Shown here: positions 1 to 6,919 of the stretch, piece by piece
How the letters are laid out: every line of letters begins with the position of its first letter
How positions within the stretch are numbered: position 1 is the first letter of the stretch
Assembly (NCBI GenBank): GCA_039591615.1
Contig: JBDHDH010000024.1
Coordinates: forward strand, 6,017-70,016
Reading direction: 5' to 3'
Origin: Gemmatimonadota bacterium
GTDB taxonomy: Bacteria; Gemmatimonadota; Gemmatimonadetes; Gemmatimonadales; GWC2-71-9
Length of the DNA stretch: 64,000 nt
Notes under the pieces: generated by a model
The model's input: the letters and a program-made list of their open reading frames with translations, nothing else
What the model was told of the DNA's origin: nothing
Database searches by the model: none
Program-made: the position numbers and the translations under genes

Positions 1-203
1 GTGATCGAGGTCCGCTAGATGCTGAAGTCATCGAACATGACCTCCTCGCGATCGACGCCTAGCCCGCCTGAATCTAACCTCCGTCGACGCGGGTCAGGTT
101 GGCTGGGTCTTGGGCGAGGACCCGCCGCGACTTGAGCTCTCCTCCTTCGCATATCATTTATAGGGTCGCTGGATGCAGATCCGAGTTCTCGGGAGGAGGT
201 CTC

Positions 204-610: not shown

Positions 611-697
611 GCACCGTTTCCGAACTTCTCCGAACACTTTCTTTCACGTTTCTGTAACCGGCCGCGACGATCCGGCGTAGGTTGTCGGGAACGGTGC
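611..697. promoter_or_regulatory. Candidate operator or leader structure upstream of the HTH-kinase-permease gene
   Basis: TCCGAAC direct repeat at 619-625 and 629-635; GCACCGTTTCCGAA (611-624) is a 12/14 inverted match to 684-697. Confidence 0.3.
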
Positions 698-727: not shown

Positions 728-3700
728 GTGCGGATTCGTCTCAAACGTGACCCTCTGCTCGAGCTGATCGCCCGAAGCAACCGGAGTCAGAACCATTGGG
801 CAATCCGGCTCGGACTGTCTCGAGGACATTGGTCGGACATTGTGAACGGGAAGCACCCGTATCCCTCGGGCCGAACACGGGAGAAGCTGCTGGAGGCGTT
901 CGACGTGGCATTCAGCGAGCTGTTCGAGGTCGAGGCGAGCGCTTCGACCTTGCCGGACCACACTTTCCAGCGGGCCATCGCCGACCAGTATCTGATCGAT
1001 CGCGAGGTGGGTCAGGGCGGAATGGGAACCGTATACCTTGCACGGGACGTCAAGCTCGGTCGTTCTGTGGCCATCAAGGTGGTCTCCCCCGAGGCGGTGA
1101 GCGGAATAGGAGCCGAGGAGTTCCTCAGGGAAGTCGCCCACACGACTCGACTGCAGCATCCCCACATCCTTCCCATCTACGATGCCGGACAAGCAGCCGG
1201 AAGCCCGTTCTACGTCATGCCCTATGTCCGAGGGGGCTCCCTGCGGGATCTCCTCCAACGCCGGGGGCCCCTCGCGGCGGACGAAATGCTCGGCATCGCC
1301 ACCGGCGTGGCCGCTGCGCTGACCCACGCACACGACCACGAGGTGCTGCACTGCGACGTGAAGCCGGGCAACGTTCTTCTCTCCGGCCAGCATGCATACC
1401 TCTCCGACTTCGGTATTTCCCGCGCCATCTACACCGAAGCTTTCGGCCTCGCCCGTCGACCCAAGATCGACTCCTCAGCGGGCACGCCGGCGTACGTGAG
1501 CCCCGAGCAGGCGAGCGGCGAACGCACGCTGGACGCCCGCTCTGACGTCTACAGCTTCGGCTGCATGGTTTTCGAGATGCTCTCGGGCCGTCCGCCGTTC
1601 ACGGGCAACACCTCGTTAGCTGTCGTCTCGCAGCGATTCACAGCCGACGTGCCGAACCTCAAGGCGATGGCGCAACATGTGTCGCCGGCCGTGGCCGAAG
1701 CGGTGACGAGAGCAATGGCCTTTGATATGAGCCGGCGCACACAGTCGGCAGCGGCGTTTGTCGACGACCTCGAACGGGGTGCAGCCCACACGAAACCCGG
1801 GCTTCGTGCGCGCGCCGCCCTCGCTCGCGCTCGGGTGGGTAGTTGGAGTCGCCAACGCCTCGCCACGCTCATCCCCAAACTCAGACCTCCTGGGCTCAAC
1901 CAGCACAGCGCAGTAGGACCGATGCTCGATTCGTTGAAGCAGGATCTCGCTTATGCACTGCGCACCCTTGGGCGCGCGCCTGGCTTTGCGTTGCTCGTCA
2001 TCCTCACTCTCGGGTTCGGCATCGCGGCCAACACGACGGTGTTCAGCCTGCTCAACCCCTATCTCCTGCGACCGCTACCGTTTGGGGCGCCGGAGCGACT
2101 GGTCCAGATCGGACAGGTCGACCCCGTAACCGGGTGGGATGGTGTGCGTTTCTCACTTCCGCAGTTCTTGGACTGGCGGGAGCGAAGCAGGGCTTTCGAG
2201 GACGTGGCCACGTACACGTACACGTCGATGAACGTTACCGGACCGGAGGGGCCGGAACGCGTCCTGGTCAGCACCCTCTCGGGAAACATGTTTTCCGTGC
2301 TGGACGCCGAGGCGGCGCTTGGCCGCGTGTTTCGAGAAGGGGAAGATGGTCCGGCGGCGCCACGAGTGGCGGTTCTGAGTCATGGCCTGTGGAACGCCCG
2401 GTTCGGCGCAGATCTGCAGATCCTCGGTCGCACCCTCATGATCGACGGAACGGCGTACTCGGTGATCGGGGTAATGCCCAGGGGATTCGTCTTCCCGTTC
2501 GGTAGCGTGGATCTCTGGGTGCCGTTCGCTCAAGATCCCCGCGCCGAGGCGCGGGACAGAGACATCCATCTGATTGTCGGTCGGCTGCTGCCCGACTGGA
2601 CTATCGGTGGGACTCAAGATGAGCTCACGGCCATTCAGCGGGAGTTGGGCACGATCTATCCGGAGGTTGAAGGCAAGTACGTGGGTGTGAGTGTCACGCC
2701 GATTCGAGAGGCGCTGAACTTTGCCTGGGACCCGTTGCGGATCACCTTCGCCCTCATGTTGGCCGCCGTCGGTTTCGCTCTGCTCCTTGCCTGCGTGAAC
2801 GTGGCGAGCCTCTCGCTCGCCCGGGCCACCGCCCGGAGTAACGAGGTAGCGGTGCGTACGGCCCTGGGCGCCGGACGACGGCGCATCGTTCGGCAGTTAC
2901 TCACTGAAAGCGGACTCCTGGCCGTCGGCGGCGGCATGATTGGAATCGGGGTCGCGTACTGGGCGGCGCGAGCCATAGGGAGCGCCATTCCGGAGGATCT
3001 CTACCGCGTCGGCGAGTTCACGGTCGACGGCCGCGTGTTGTTGTTCACGCTGCTGGTGACGGCAATAACGCCAGTCCTGTTCGGTCTCGCTCCGGCGCTC
3101 TCAGCGACACGAACCGATCTCAGCGCTGTCCTCAAGGAAGGAGGTGGGCGGGGTTCTCTCGGTCTTCGCTCGATGCGGACACGGCGCATATTGGTCGTAT
3201 TCGAGATCTCCATGGCCGTAGTACTGGTGGCAGGGACGGGGCTGATGATCCGGAGTTTTCGGGCAGCCCAAAACATGAATCTCGGTTTCGACGTGGACCG
3301 GGCGCTCACCGTGGTCGTGACACCACCTGCGTCGGAATACTCTATCGAGCGGCTGGAAGACTACTATCGGAGATCGGAGGAGGCCCTCGCGAATCTGCCC
3401 GGGGTGCGGGCGGCAGGAACCGTGATGTGGCTACCCCTGAACCACGAAACGTCGATGCTCCAGTTCGCCCTCCCGGGGCAGGAACCCGCAACCCCAGGTG
3501 AGTGGCCCGTGGCGATCCAAAACCTGGCATCGGGTGATTACTTCGCCACGATCGGCATTCCACTGGTGGCGGGACGGACGTTCGATGCGACCGATACGCG
3601 GGACGCGCCGCCGGCCGTCATGGTGAGCCGAGCGCTCGCGGAGCGCTACTGGTCCGGCCACAGTCCAGTGGGACGATCGCTACTGATCGGCGATCCCGAG

Positions 3701-4345
3701 AGCCCAACGTCGGCCACTGTCGTCGGGGTCGTTGGGGACGCTCGCCACGAAGGCTTGGTCGATGAGGTGCGTCCGCAGATCTATCGGCCGCTTACGCAAC
3801 GGCCAAGCCGGCGACGGTTCTTCGTGCTCGCGACCGACGGCCCTCCAGCTTCCTTGACCGCTTCCGCGCGGCAGGCGCTCCACGGTGTGGACCCCAATCT
3901 CCCTGCTTCGGTGCGTCCCCTGCGGGATATCGTGAACGAGAATATGCTCCTGTGGTCGATTCCGTCGGTGTTGCTGGGCGTTCTCGGGGTCGGGGCACTG
4001 CTCCTGGCCGCCGTGGGCATCTACGGCGTGATCGGCTATTCGGTCGCGCAGCGCCGTCAGGAGATCGGTATCCGGATGGCCCTGGGCGCGAGCCGAGAGC
4101 AAATCCGACATGTCTTCGTGCAGGATGGACTCCGGCTCACCCTGGTGGGCCTCGGCGCCGGCCTCGTACTTGCGGTCGGAGCCGGCCAGCTGATTCGCGG
4201 GGTCCTGCTGGGGGTATCACCGTTCGATCCCGTCACCCTAACGGCGGTGCTAGTGGTATTCGCCGTCGTGGCGATTCTGGCGAGCTTCCTTCCCGCCGAA
4301 CGGGCGAGCCGTGTGGACCCACAACGTGTATTGAGGTACGAGTAG
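728..4345 (+). CDS. Fusion: XRE-family HTH + Ser/Thr protein kinase + ADOP (duplicated MacB-PCD/FtsX) permease
   Basis: N-terminal SQNHWAIRLGLSRGHWSDIVNGKHPYPS HTH; kinase motifs GQGGMG, VAIK, HCDVKPGN, DFG, GTPAYVSPE; then MLDSLKQDLAYALRTL...GIAANTTVFS and the two ADOP repeats (RSNEVAVRTALGAGR, RRQEIGIRMALGA). No internal stop. Confidence 0.9.
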   Translation: MRIRLKRDPLLELIARSNRSQNHWAIRLGLSRGHWSDIVNGKHPYPSGRTREKLLEAFDVAFSELFEVEASASTLPDHTFQRAIADQYLIDREVGQGGMGTVYLARDVKLGRSVAIKVVSPEAVSGIGAEEFLREVAHTTRLQHPHILPIYDAGQAAGSPFYVMPYVRGGSLRDLLQRRGPLAADEMLGIATGVAAALTHAHDHEVLHCDVKPGNVLLSGQHAYLSDFGISRAIYTEAFGLARRPKIDSSAGTPAYVSPEQASGERTLDARSDVYSFGCMVFEMLSGRPPFTGNTSLAVVSQRFTADVPNLKAMAQHVSPAVAEAVTRAMAFDMSRRTQSAAAFVDDLERGAAHTKPGLRARAALARARVGSWSRQRLATLIPKLRPPGLNQHSAVGPMLDSLKQDLAYALRTLGRAPGFALLVILTLGFGIAANTTVFSLLNPYLLRPLPFGAPERLVQIGQVDPVTGWDGVRFSLPQFLDWRERSRAFEDVATYTYTSMNVTGPEGPERVLVSTLSGNMFSVLDAEAALGRVFREGEDGPAAPRVAVLSHGLWNARFGADLQILGRTLMIDGTAYSVIGVMPRGFVFPFGSVDLWVPFAQDPRAEARDRDIHLIVGRLLPDWTIGGTQDELTAIQRELGTIYPEVEGKYVGVSVTPIREALNFAWDPLRITFALMLAAVGFALLLACVNVASLSLARATARSNEVAVRTALGAGRRRIVRQLLTESGLLAVGGGMIGIGVAYWAARAIGSAIPEDLYRVGEFTVDGRVLLFTLLVTAITPVLFGLAPALSATRTDLSAVLKEGGGRGSLGLRSMRTRRILVVFEISMAVVLVAGTGLMIRSFRAAQNMNLGFDVDRALTVVVTPPASEYSIERLEDYYRRSEEALANLPGVRAAGTVMWLPLNHETSMLQFALPGQEPATPGEWPVAIQNLASGDYFATIGIPLVAGRTFDATDTRDAPPAVMVSRALAERYWSGHSPVGRSLLIGDPESPTSATVVGVVGDARHEGLVDEVRPQIYRPLTQRPSRRRFFVLATDGPPASLTASARQALHGVDPNLPASVRPLRDIVNENMLLWSIPSVLLGVLGVGALLLAAVGIYGVIGYSVAQRRQEIGIRMALGASREQIRHVFVQDGLRLTLVGLGAGLVLAVGAGQLIRGVLLGVSPFDPVTLTAVLVVFAVVAILASFLPAERASRVDPQRVLRYE

Positions 4346-4459: not shown

Positions 4460-4963
4460 TCACGAGCTCTCCGGACTCAGGAGACCGTGCACCATCATTC
4501 GATGGATCTGCCACGTGCCGTCATCCGACCGTTTCCACACCACCACGTACCGACCACGGTATTCGTCTGGTGGCGCCTCGTGGCGACCGCCGACCTCAGT
4601 GTATGTCCCGAACTCGTAAACGGTGTCGTCGTGGACCGTGAGCTCCGTGGTGCGATTGGTCACCTTGGTGAGCGTGAACTGCTCGAACATCTCGCTGGCG
4701 AATCGCTCAATGGCTCCACGACCACGGAAGGCGGCCATGCCGGGCTCCATCAGGATCGCGTCGTCGGTGAACATCGACGCCAGGGCCGGAGCATCGCCAC
4801 GCACCAAGATCTCACGGTACTCGCCCCAGCGGAGGGCGATCGTGTCAGCGATTGCCCAGGTGGAAGAACCGTCCACCTCAGCTGTTTCCGTCCGGATGCA
4901 CCCGAGTACCAACAGGGTCACCGCACCGCCTGCACTCAAGCGCTGAAACGCTCGTCGAGTCAC
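4460..4963 (-). CDS. NTF2-like/SnoaL (DUF4440/SgcJ-type) protein with signal peptide
   Basis: GDAPALASMFTDDAILMEPG...GRGAI and GRYVVVWKRSDDGTWQIHR are typical of the fold. Confidence 0.8.
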   Translation of the reverse strand: MTRRAFQRLSAGGAVTLLVLGCIRTETAEVDGSSTWAIADTIALRWGEYREILVRGDAPALASMFTDDAILMEPGMAAFRGRGAIERFASEMFEQFTLTKVTNRTTELTVHDDTVYEFGTYTEVGGRHEAPPDEYRGRYVVVWKRSDDGTWQIHRMMVHGLLSPESS

Positions 4964-6621
4964 TGCCTCCTAGCGTAACGTCGGACGTACGCTTCCGCCA
5001 CCACCACCTCGGGACGATCACCGTCGCCTTTTTGCGTAAGCGTGAGGTAGCGCATGAACCAATCGGCGGCGCTTTCGTGCTCTCCCAGCAATTGAGCCGA
5101 CCATGCCGCGCCAAAGAGGCTCCGTGCGCGGTTGGGCGCTGATTGGAGCACCGCTTCATACTCGGCGCCGGCGTCCTCATATCGCCACATCTCGATCAGG
5201 AGATCACCCAGGAGCTCCCGGGTCGGGACCACCGGAGGGGGGAGGGCGGGGTGAAACTCGAGGCTATCCTCCCGATCGGCCGCTTCCGCTGCGAGCAGCA
5301 GAGCACTCGTCGTGTCGCCTTGTGCGAATGCCACCCAGGCCGAGATCGCCAACCGCTGCGCCTCGGTGCGTCGGCGCCAAGGACCTCGCGTGTTCGGCAT
5401 CGATCGCTCGACGGCGAGCAGCTTTTCGAATTCGGCGCGGGTCGTCTCCAGGTCACGGTTGCGCGCCGCCCCGAGCGCTCGCGCGAACCGCGTCACGGCC
5501 TGAGCGGAGGGAGATCCTGACGCCTCGGGTTCCGGCAGGGTCGCCGCACCAGCCCAGTCTCGACGCTCCAATGCGTATCGCGCGGGAACAGCGGCGAGCA
5601 CGTGATGGGCAGGCTCGAGCAGGCGTGCGTCCGGAGCTCTCTCTTGGAGCCGCGCGAGCTCCTTGACCACCTTCCTGGCGTCGTTGTCACGACCTTGCTG
5701 GAGATAAGCGTACACGAGGAAGTCGAGCGCATGAACCCGAAGATCGTTTATCTCTTCTGCCTCCTCCGTGCTGTCCACCCCTTCACGAGACACTTCCAGG
5801 GAAAAGGTGTTGGCCTCGATCACCTCGTCCCACATTCCCAGCCGTGTATAGATATGTGACGGGATGTGTCGTGCATGGTCGGTCTGCGGTGCCGACCGTG
5901 CAAACCGGTGCGCCGCGTCCAGCCCGCGGTGTGCGAGGGCTGGATGATCGTAGATGTGAATGAGATAATGCGCGATGCCCGGATGAGCCGGATGCGATGC
6001 AAGGAGGCTGTCGAGCTCCGCACCGATCTCGACGCGGCGCTCGAGCGTTGTATCAGTTGCTATGGCATTCGCGGCAACTGCTCGAGCGTAGAACACCCTC
6101 GCCTCGAGATCGTCGGGATACCGCTGTGTCAGCTCACGCATCTTCACTTCATAGGTGAGCGAGCGCGCGCCGTGATCGTGCTGACCGGCGTTCCTGAAAT
6201 ACACCGTGACGGCTTCCAAGTATTCGCGCTCCCGCGGCGTCACAGCCTCCAGATTCGTGGCGCTGCTCAACAACGACCACGCTTCTCGTAGGTTCGCTTC
6301 CGGCGGCTCCCCCAAGAAAGGGTTCCCGCGGAGCGCCATGGCGAGCCCCCACTCGGCCATCGCGCACGTGGAATCTCGCACTGCGATCTCCCGAAACTCC
6401 TTGTCTGCTTCCTTCCACCTGAATGAGTGGAGGAACGAAGCGCCGCGCTCGAACTGCGCCTGACTCTCCGGCCTGCACGATATCGGAAACTGGACGCGGC
6501 CCAATTCCTCTCGCACCTGGACCGATTGGTCTTGTGCTTGGATCGGTCGTGCGAGCCCTGGAAGGATGGCGAGCGACAGCGCGCCAATCAGGCCAAAACG
6601 CATGATTCCGGGCGACGGCAT
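4960..6621 (-). CDS. Secreted TPR-containing protein
   Basis: Signal peptide after ATG 6621; LGRVQFPISC..AQFERG..FLHSF and HPGIAHYLIH...HARHIPSHIYTRLG motifs of a conserved TPR family; 4-nt overlap with the next gene. Confidence 0.75.
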   Translation of the reverse strand: MPSPGIMRFGLIGALSLAILPGLARPIQAQDQSVQVREELGRVQFPISCRPESQAQFERGASFLHSFRWKEADKEFREIAVRDSTCAMAEWGLAMALRGNPFLGEPPEANLREAWSLLSSATNLEAVTPREREYLEAVTVYFRNAGQHDHGARSLTYEVKMRELTQRYPDDLEARVFYARAVAANAIATDTTLERRVEIGAELDSLLASHPAHPGIAHYLIHIYDHPALAHRGLDAAHRFARSAPQTDHARHIPSHIYTRLGMWDEVIEANTFSLEVSREGVDSTEEAEEINDLRVHALDFLVYAYLQQGRDNDARKVVKELARLQERAPDARLLEPAHHVLAAVPARYALERRDWAGAATLPEPEASGSPSAQAVTRFARALGAARNRDLETTRAEFEKLLAVERSMPNTRGPWRRRTEAQRLAISAWVAFAQGDTTSALLLAAEAADREDSLEFHPALPPPVVPTRELLGDLLIEMWRYEDAGAEYEAVLQSAPNRARSLFGAAWSAQLLGEHESAADWFMRYLTLTQKGDGDRPEVVVAEAYVRRYARRQ

Positions 6622-6919
6622 AAGGCACCCCCGACTTTGAATGTGAACCCGGCTGTATCGACCGCACGGTGAGCGAGTCACAGGTGGGCGCCACCCTGTA
6701 ACCATCCGCCAAGAATATGCGTCTTACTCAAACGGACCGTGACGGGGGTCACATGGTTACGACGTGCAGCACGCCACTTCCCCGCATGACTCCGCAGGGG
6801 CGGCCGCGGCGAGGTCCCCGATGCGTCGCCGGGGCCCGGCCGGCGGAGCTGGGGCGCGTCTGGAGGAATCGCGGCCTGACTGAGCGCGATGCGGGGAGGG
6901 TATGCGACTGAGAGGCCTT

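Follow-up and report, generated by a model that had tools for sequence, protein, structure and literature searches.

On the 64,000-nt stretch of Gemmatimonadota DNA analysed here (hereafter the window; contig JBDHDH010000024.1, positions 6,017 to 70,016), the gene at positions 728..4345 of the forward strand encodes a single polypeptide of 1205 amino acid residues, in which a helix-turn-helix (HTH) head of the XRE/Cro type is followed by a Hanks-type Ser/Thr kinase and by a duplicated permease of the ADOP family. We propose, with moderate confidence, that this protein acts as a membrane-tethered, autoregulated one-component sensor and kinase whose ADOP module would serve as the input, following a logic like that of the Bce systems. 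An earlier note made from the sequence alone had suggested that the periplasmic domains might signal to a cytoplasmic kinase and DNA-binding head. The conservation of the fusion, the predicted topology, the pattern of conserved residues and a direct repeat found upstream of the gene support this part of the suggestion, while the part that made ADOPs receptors and not exporters was overstated.

Conservation of the fused gene

The coding sequence begins with a GTG and runs on the + strand as one stop-free frame of 1205 codons plus a stop, as had been read from the letters, and the N-terminal signature MR(V/I)RLK matches in position across the aligned homologues. The identical protein was found on five contigs from three NCBI metagenome-assembled genome (MAG) assemblies and one Logan assembly, each time in the same context. 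All of the 120 top database matches combine Pkinase with MacB_PCD (plus FtsX), about 110 of them at full length (~1160-1240 residues). The more than 110 full-length homologues retrieved, with overall identities of 38-89%, run counter to a scenario that the earlier note had named as fatal to its proposal, in which close relatives always encode kinase and permease apart. Using one genome per species, 127 family loci were confirmed, and the 80 that were listed all belong to Gemmatimonadota (80/80); some of these genomes contain two to five paralogues of the family. Because the same protein is present in four assemblies and has more than 110 fused homologues, the fusion is not an assembly artefact, and to judge from these comparisons it is real, conserved and under selection.

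A frame that is artefactual or functionally split, be it a chimera, a recent deletion fusion or a gene translated mainly from an internal ATG to give a separate permease, is very improbable. The internal ATG of which the earlier note had warned, at about 1922, does exist at 1925-1927 (codon M400), is preceded at 3 nt by AGGA, and falls in an alignment column that holds methionine in 44 of 111 homologues. Methionine is not kept there family-wide, and a separate permease product is therefore not a family feature; moreover, the gene recurs in all four assemblies, the fused homologues extend down to 38% identity and the head is under strong purifying selection. Split versions of the kinase and the permease were also sought, and the short HTH-kinase entries in the database proved to be mostly partial genes ending short contigs, which therefore provide no evidence of separate kinase and permease genes. 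The artefact or split reading of the 728-4345 frame is thus largely refuted by the four assemblies and the fused homologues.

The host genome carries ten full-length ADOP copies, of which the 728-4345 copy alone has a frame long enough for a kinase; the other nine, scattered over other contigs, have frames of 807-861 residues that are too short for one. On contig C1 of this genome (19625-24385), four adjoining partial matches to the ADOP model, corresponding to single-FtsX-type permeases, lie on one strand.

Domain architecture and predicted topology

The head spans residues 1-70 (728..937, + strand, as for all features of the gene given here). HTH_31 remains below its cut-off of 27 bits on this protein, reaching 18 bits with the full-length sequence and 23.3 bits with the isolated head. 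Across the family, HTH_31 is found in 39 of 39 heads (best E 4e-8) and HTH_19 in 34 of 39, a head profile matches exclusively XRE/Cro-type HTH structures in the PDB, and the head has five helices in the AlphaFold model. Since the HTH_31 matches, the PDB profile and the five-helix model agree, we assign the head to the XRE/Cro type, which bears out the XRE-type HTH of about 70 residues proposed initially. The kinase domain occupies residues 87-345 (986..1762) according to Pfam, NCBIfam, the alignment and Foldseek, with Pkinase (PF00069) matching residues 90-339 (E 6e-46; 157 bits, cut-off 31.7) and PknB kinase domains as its structural matches (target TM-score 0.75-0.85, identity 30-36%). A variable, basic and partly helical linker (residues 346-402; 1763..1933), which includes the internal ATG, leads to the permease (residues 404-1205; 1937..4342). 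The latter contains two MacB_PCD and two FtsX domains (Pfam) and covers positions 2-803 of the 803 in the NCBIfam ADOP model TIGR03434, with 870 bits (cut-off 622.3); it is the full duplicated permease that had been claimed, and hydropathy, the AlphaFold model and Foldseek concur in this assignment.

Eight transmembrane (TM) helices, with the N-terminus inside, follow both from hydropathy and from the AlphaFold model (mean pLDDT 89.5, pTM 0.70): TM1 (1985-2041), a first periplasmic domain (2042-2740), TM2-4 (2741-3091), TM5 (3188-3244), a second periplasmic domain (3245-3964) and TM6-8 (3965-4288), each periplasmic domain having 230-240 residues. Residues 1-419 are placed in the cytoplasm, which locates the HTH and the kinase inside, as the earlier note had reasoned from the segment before TM1 of MacB-type proteins. 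In the model the linker consists of a helix followed by a low-confidence stretch, and an unbroken helical path runs from the linker through TM1. The top Foldseek match of the permease part is E. coli YbbP of YbbAP (9ge6_A, E 1.8e-19, 890 columns), with 5gko also retrieved; overall, the best structural matches are YbbP of the YbbAP Type VII ABC (ATP-binding cassette) system, MacB and PknB-type kinase domains. By its domain matches, then, the protein is a genuine ADOP as well as a Hanks kinase of the non-RD type and an XRE-HTH protein, and, as in one-component transmembrane regulators, a DNA-binding-type domain and TM segments share one polypeptide.

The kinase signature is nearly invariant. All 111 homologues have K117, E135, H208, C209, D227 (of the DFG motif) and T253, and 110 of them have D210, while N215 is invariant in an alignment of 33 sequences. 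HCD takes the place of HRD in every one of the 111 homologues, which sets these proteins outside the RD kinases and makes the non-RD catalytic loop, by this alignment, a family trait. Because the catalytic residues and C209 are retained in 110-111 of the 111 homologues, the kinase is predicted to be catalytically competent and is very likely active, and the earlier description of a complete kinase with HCD and with the catalytic Asp, Lys and DFG intact now extends to the whole family.

Conservation, expressed as mean pairwise identity, is highest in the HTH head (0.68) and the kinase (0.63), falls to 0.25 in the linker, rises to 0.41-0.50 in the TM segments, and is 0.34 and 0.30 in periplasmic domains 1 and 2, respectively. 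Within the head, G33, H34, S36, G41 and H43, in the recognition-helix region, are invariant in the alignment. Among the few invariant positions of the ADOP part are E706, R710, G714, R719, E727, R1116 and G1120, which lie in the cytoplasmic FtsX loops TM2-TM3 and TM6-TM7; we take these loops to be the coupling helices of MacB-type structures. The contrast in identity between the head with its kinase and the periplasmic domains fits a constant signalling head mounted on a variable periplasmic input.

A direct repeat upstream of the family genes

Upstream of the gene, the direct repeat GAACTTCTCCGAACACTT (622..639, + strand; full site CCGAACTTCTCCGAACACTTT at 620-640) forms a candidate operator and is the sole match in the 64-kb window. 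In nearly all family genes its consensus, (T/C)CGAAC-N5-CGAACACTTT, precedes the start by 60-170 nt: of 69 family upstream regions, 66 have GAACACTT, matched with no more than one mismatch, and a second GAAC one helical turn before it. A position weight matrix (PWM) was used to scan both strands of 923 kb (the window and the loci) at a threshold of 20 bits or more. It returned 67 matches, 65 of which lie just upstream of the start of a family gene; 62 of these are within 300 nt upstream of the listed family starts, two precede starts placed too far upstream in the locus table, and one lies before a second copy of the family. About ten plain-ADOP-like open reading frames (ORFs) in the same loci yielded no strong match in this both-strand scan. 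As judged from the scanned sequences, the repeat site is associated exclusively with genes bearing this HTH head. The remaining two matches belong to a single intergenic region of locus L024 (4660-4760), just downstream of the family gene, where two divergent copies of the repeat face a 110-residue TPR ORF on the - strand and, on the + strand, a 65-residue ORF and a putative lipoprotein of 409 residues with a weak beta-propeller match. These ORFs are possible extra members of the regulon.

Downstream of the repeat, TGTAAC (653..658, + strand) resembles a -35 element of the extracytoplasmic function (ECF) type and CGTAGGTT (676..683, + strand) a -10 element. The AAC and the TAnnTT within them lie at the fixed phases +24..26 and +46..51 from GAACACTT in 66 loci, and the -10-like CGTAGGTT is retained in the relative that is 89% identical. 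A scan for sigma-70 consensus promoters found none between 450 and 4700, and the promoter elements as a pair resemble those of the ECF type. Transcription is predicted to start at about 689-693, some 6-10 nt downstream of 676..683, which would centre the repeat near position -60, a placement like that of a class I activator relative to this putative start.

The family shows two local departures from this layout. In the subclade formed by L028, L037, L043, L044, L048, L056, L061 and L066, the repeat has a period of 12-13 bp (TCCGAACACCTTGTCCGAACACTT) instead of 10 bp, and the N-terminus is mostly MR(Y/Q)RL(R/K/N)LD(R/Q)L, as seen in the seven of these eight loci that are in the alignment; the spacing of the candidate operator thus appears to shift together with the clade of the head. 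In L021, L032, L038-L041 and L062, the repeat is just 58-61 nt before the ATG and TA(G/C)CTT is 7-8 nt before it, which suggests leaderless transcripts in this subclade.

A kinase-less sister architecture carries the same head and a related site

A search of 1.84 billion representative proteins with the head profile (E <= 1e-10) gave 171 clusters in two length classes, of ~1160-1230 and ~886-954 residues. The proteins of the shorter class (~900 residues; P0276-P0374) have the same head, a tether of 30-60 residues and a full-length ADOP (TIGR03434, 672-860 bits), without a kinase. Using nine of their N-terminal heads as query, we retrieved eight kinase-less loci (L081-L088), all of them from Acidobacteriota MAGs. 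These genes are preceded at 69-90 nt by a related GAAC...GAACACTTT repeat. In four of the seven usable loci, the position that scores highest against the Gemmatimonadota PWM over all 8.2 kb sits 69-87 nt upstream of the gene, and a fifth has a variant of the repeat with wider spacing; by our own estimate, four rank-1 matches would land by chance in a 240-nt window, out of ~16,360 positions, with a probability of the order of 1e-6. Because it is found in two phyla and two architectures and is absent from the plain-ADOP-like ORFs, the repeat tracks the head and neither the permease nor the kinase. That the site follows the head is therefore our main argument that the head binds it, and such co-travel is as a membrane-tethered one-component regulator predicts.

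The repeat could instead be bound by another factor, such as a winged-helix response regulator or an activator linked to an ECF sigma factor, leaving the head to contact other DNA or a protein. Direct repeats with a period of 10-11 bp are typical of OmpR/PhoB-type regulators, the -35 and -10 elements are ECF-like, and four loci have an ECF sigma gene divergently upstream. Yet a separate factor would have had to accompany the head into another phylum and another architecture while sparing the plain-ADOP-like ORFs of the same loci, and the family has no conserved regulator gene as a neighbour. We regard this explanation as unlikely.

Regulated proteolysis, in which a signal would lead to cleavage of the linker and release a soluble HTH-kinase head to act on DNA and on substrates, seems more doubtful still. 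It would draw on the variable, low-confidence linker (residues 346-402) and on the many short HTH-kinase entries in the database, but most of these entries are genes cut off where short contigs end, the neighbourhood has no conserved protease gene, and the tether of the kinase-less relatives is just 30-60 residues long.

Head and permease body have separate histories

Identity in the head is decoupled from identity in the ADOP part: among proteins with heads 80-90% identical, ADOP identity ranges from 0.29 to 0.86. In one pair, P0086 and P0093, identity is ~88-90% from the HTH across the kinase, linker and N-terminal helix to TM1, and falls abruptly to ~25-30% after residue 430; in 40 more pairs the change point in identity lies at the end of the kinase, at residues 318-345. 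By this comparison, head and permease body have separate histories, which could reflect either exchange of the body under a constant head or homogenisation of the head among paralogues by gene conversion. In a tree of the ADOP part, the kinase-fused, HTH-only and plain forms are interleaved, although its backbone is weak and some of the rows labelled plain are probably fragments of family genes. At one locus (L030, 1-3877), the end of the contig is the start of a family gene (3562-3876) that continues into the beginning of the contig, an arrangement to be expected either of a tandem pair or of an assembly that has been collapsed or circularised.

Gene neighbourhood and the question of a pump

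The gene appears monocistronic, with a 96-residue gene ending 228 nt upstream and a SnoaL-like gene converging on it from downstream. This SnoaL-like gene (4460-4963, - strand; 153 residues) is called in the identical contigs. Another convergent gene (4960-6705, - strand) encodes a protein of 553-581 residues with C-terminal TPR repeats, and L089, the relative with 89% identity, likewise has a TPR gene downstream.

A tblastn search of the 64-kb window with the ABC ATPase, adaptor and ECF sigma factor of a relative gave no match, and the genes called within 8 kb on either side of the gene include no ABC ATPase, so that the earlier remark that none is nearby holds. In having no adjacent cognate ATPase gene, the locus conforms to the 'orphan' character of ADOPs. 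Four relatives differ in this respect. In L002 (9695-11700), L003, L012 and L014, which are 53-58% identical to the 1205-residue protein and among the closest in species-representative genomes, genes for an HlyD/MacA-like adaptor and an ABC_tran ATPase lie directly downstream on the same strand. Together with the family gene, the adaptor and ATPase genes are candidates for a complete pump operon that shares its promoter, and in these genomes the module may still operate as a Type VII ABC machine. Because four relatives carry a downstream adaptor and ATPase, 'sensor' and 'pump' are not alternatives, and the earlier choice between receptors and exporters was a false one.

These loci give tentative support to a self-inducing pump, in which the ADOP body would be both sensor and effector, working as a Type VII ABC machine in envelope extraction or efflux with an ATPase supplied in trans, and the head would report its activity to call for more pump on demand. 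This is a compatible sub-reading of the sensor and kinase proposed here, differing from it in the physiological output. Besides the four operons, it is in keeping with the closest solved fold, YbbP, a partner of the ATPase YbbA, with the near restriction of the repeat to the family's own promoters and with the seven invariant residues of the FtsX loops, although the loop motifs are general FtsX signatures and hence do not discriminate. The operon is seen in only four loci, the 64-kb window contains no ATPase or adaptor, and neither was found near the kinase-less Acidobacteriota loci.

A model for signalling and the evidence against it

In the membrane-tethered sensor and kinase that we favour, the input would be the ADOP module, with its eight helices and its pair of periplasmic MacB-type domains, and the stimulus would be either a ligand at these variable domains or the work cycle of the ADOP body itself. 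A conformational change would travel along TM1 and the unbroken N-terminal helix into the cytoplasmic linker, where it would alter the state or the pairing of the kinase-HTH heads. As output, the HTH would bind CGAAC-N5-CGAACACTTT, a direct repeat whose centre lies ~60 nt upstream of where transcription of the protein's own gene is predicted to start, with two heads occupying the tandem repeat on one face of the DNA, and the protein would thereby control its own synthesis, probably as an activator. The kinase might be part of the switch, through dimerisation or phosphorylation of the head, or provide a second output. Candidate phosphosites are S47 and T50 of the head and S250 and T253 of the activation segment; position 47 is serine in 110 of 111 members that have a kinase, and in only 16 of the 39 that lack one. 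Binding of the head to the site, the sign of regulation, the gating of the head by the ADOP body and the targets of the kinase are all steps that we infer.

Several observations weigh against this model. XRE HTH proteins usually bind inverted, not direct, repeats, and the case for DNA binding by this head is the co-occurrence of site and head. The -35-like and -10-like elements were assigned by inference from sequence. Away from the family's own promoters the repeat was seen twice, both times in L024, and the transcriptional output may amount to little more than autoregulation. The existence of kinase-less relatives implies that the kinase is dispensable for any coupling between HTH and ADOP. 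Finally, clustering of the ORFs within 4.5 kb of 81 loci revealed no neighbour common to more than 11 loci, and no substrate, FHA protein or phosphatase (PP2C) partner emerged from it.

Relation to known systems

In the BceAB-BceRS systems of Firmicutes, an FtsX-type permease, whose extracytoplasmic domain is large, senses the stimulus and drives a kinase to control its own genes in a 'need-based' manner (PMC9169098, PMC10314905, bioRxiv 10.1101/2020.02.28.969956). The same elements, a permease as sensor, a kinase and control of the own gene, are proposed here to be collapsed into one polypeptide. Bce systems comprise four separate proteins, namely an ATPase, a 10-TM permease, an intramembrane histidine kinase and a response regulator, whereas a single chain here contains a permease, a Hanks Ser/Thr kinase and a DNA-binding domain; HisKA, HATPase_c and Response_reg are absent from the protein and none is recorded in the genes within 8 kb on either side. 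The E. coli YbbAP-TesA and MacB machines are Type VII ABC systems that work by mechanotransmission (PMC12646458, PMC5985334). MacB has its ATPase domain in the N-terminal cytoplasmic position before TM1, which is held here by the HTH and the kinase, and unlike YbbAP-TesA and MacB, with which identity is only 14-21%, the 1205-residue protein has no fused or adjacent ATPase; Pfam finds no ABC_tran in it and tblastn no adaptor in the window, as MacB and MacAB-TolC would call for. Because the defining parts of both are absent, the protein belongs to neither the Bce nor the MacB system.

ToxR, CadC and BcrR, the latter with an XRE HTH and four TM helices, are transmembrane transcription regulators of which a census exists (PMC10269533). 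Like them, the protein unites a cytoplasmic DNA-binding domain with membrane and periplasmic sensing parts and presumably binds DNA from the membrane, and its N-terminal XRE-type head recalls BcrR in particular; unlike them, it has a complete duplicated Type VII ABC-type permease as its sensor and a kinase between head and membrane. With the receptor kinases of the PknB/Stk1 type it shares a kinase of matching fold joined on the cytoplasmic side to an extracytoplasmic sensor, but it has no PASTA domains, a non-RD loop, an 8-TM sensor and an additional DNA-binding head, and it scores 266 bits against the cut-off of 450 of the PASTA kinase model NF033483, with the kinase part alone aligning. Its C-terminal 802 residues are those of a full-length ADOP (TIGR03434), whereas ordinary ADOPs, nine of which are found in the host genome, have ~800-860 residues and lack a cytoplasmic head.

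No description of an HTH-kinase-ADOP architecture and no occurrence of the term 'duplicated orphan permease' were found in the literature searched, which upholds, within that literature, the earlier statement that no characterised protein has this architecture. That statement needs one qualification, in that a supplementary table of the census counts MacB_PCD (76), FtsX (72) and Pkinase (27) among the domains of transmembrane regulators and leaves them undiscussed (PMC10269533). What our comparisons appear to add is the contrast in conservation, the upstream repeat, the kinase-less sister architecture of Acidobacteriota, the decoupling of head and body, and the four relatives with an adaptor and an ATPase.

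Significance for the ADOP family

Soil Acidobacteriota and Gemmatimonadota are very rich in ADOP permeases. We tentatively propose that the HTH-ADOP proteins, with or without the kinase, are single-polypeptide switches in which the transporter is the sensor, and that the head, extended in at least one pair by the linker and TM1, is a portable cassette that has been recombined onto many ADOP bodies. If so, such a cassette would give soil bacteria a means of diversifying their receptor repertoire. The use of a MacB/FtsX-type machine as a sensor would then extend beyond Firmicutes and histidine kinases, the range of transcription factors that work from the membrane would be extended likewise, and a Hanks-kinase/HTH hybrid would join bacterial one-component signalling. 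It would also follow that the huge 'orphan' ADOP family consists largely of envelope sensors, for which in other cases the regulators are provided in trans, for example by PadR neighbours. The natural fusion to a head, with or without the kinase, together with a candidate operator, makes the ADOP family concretely and cheaply testable in this respect.

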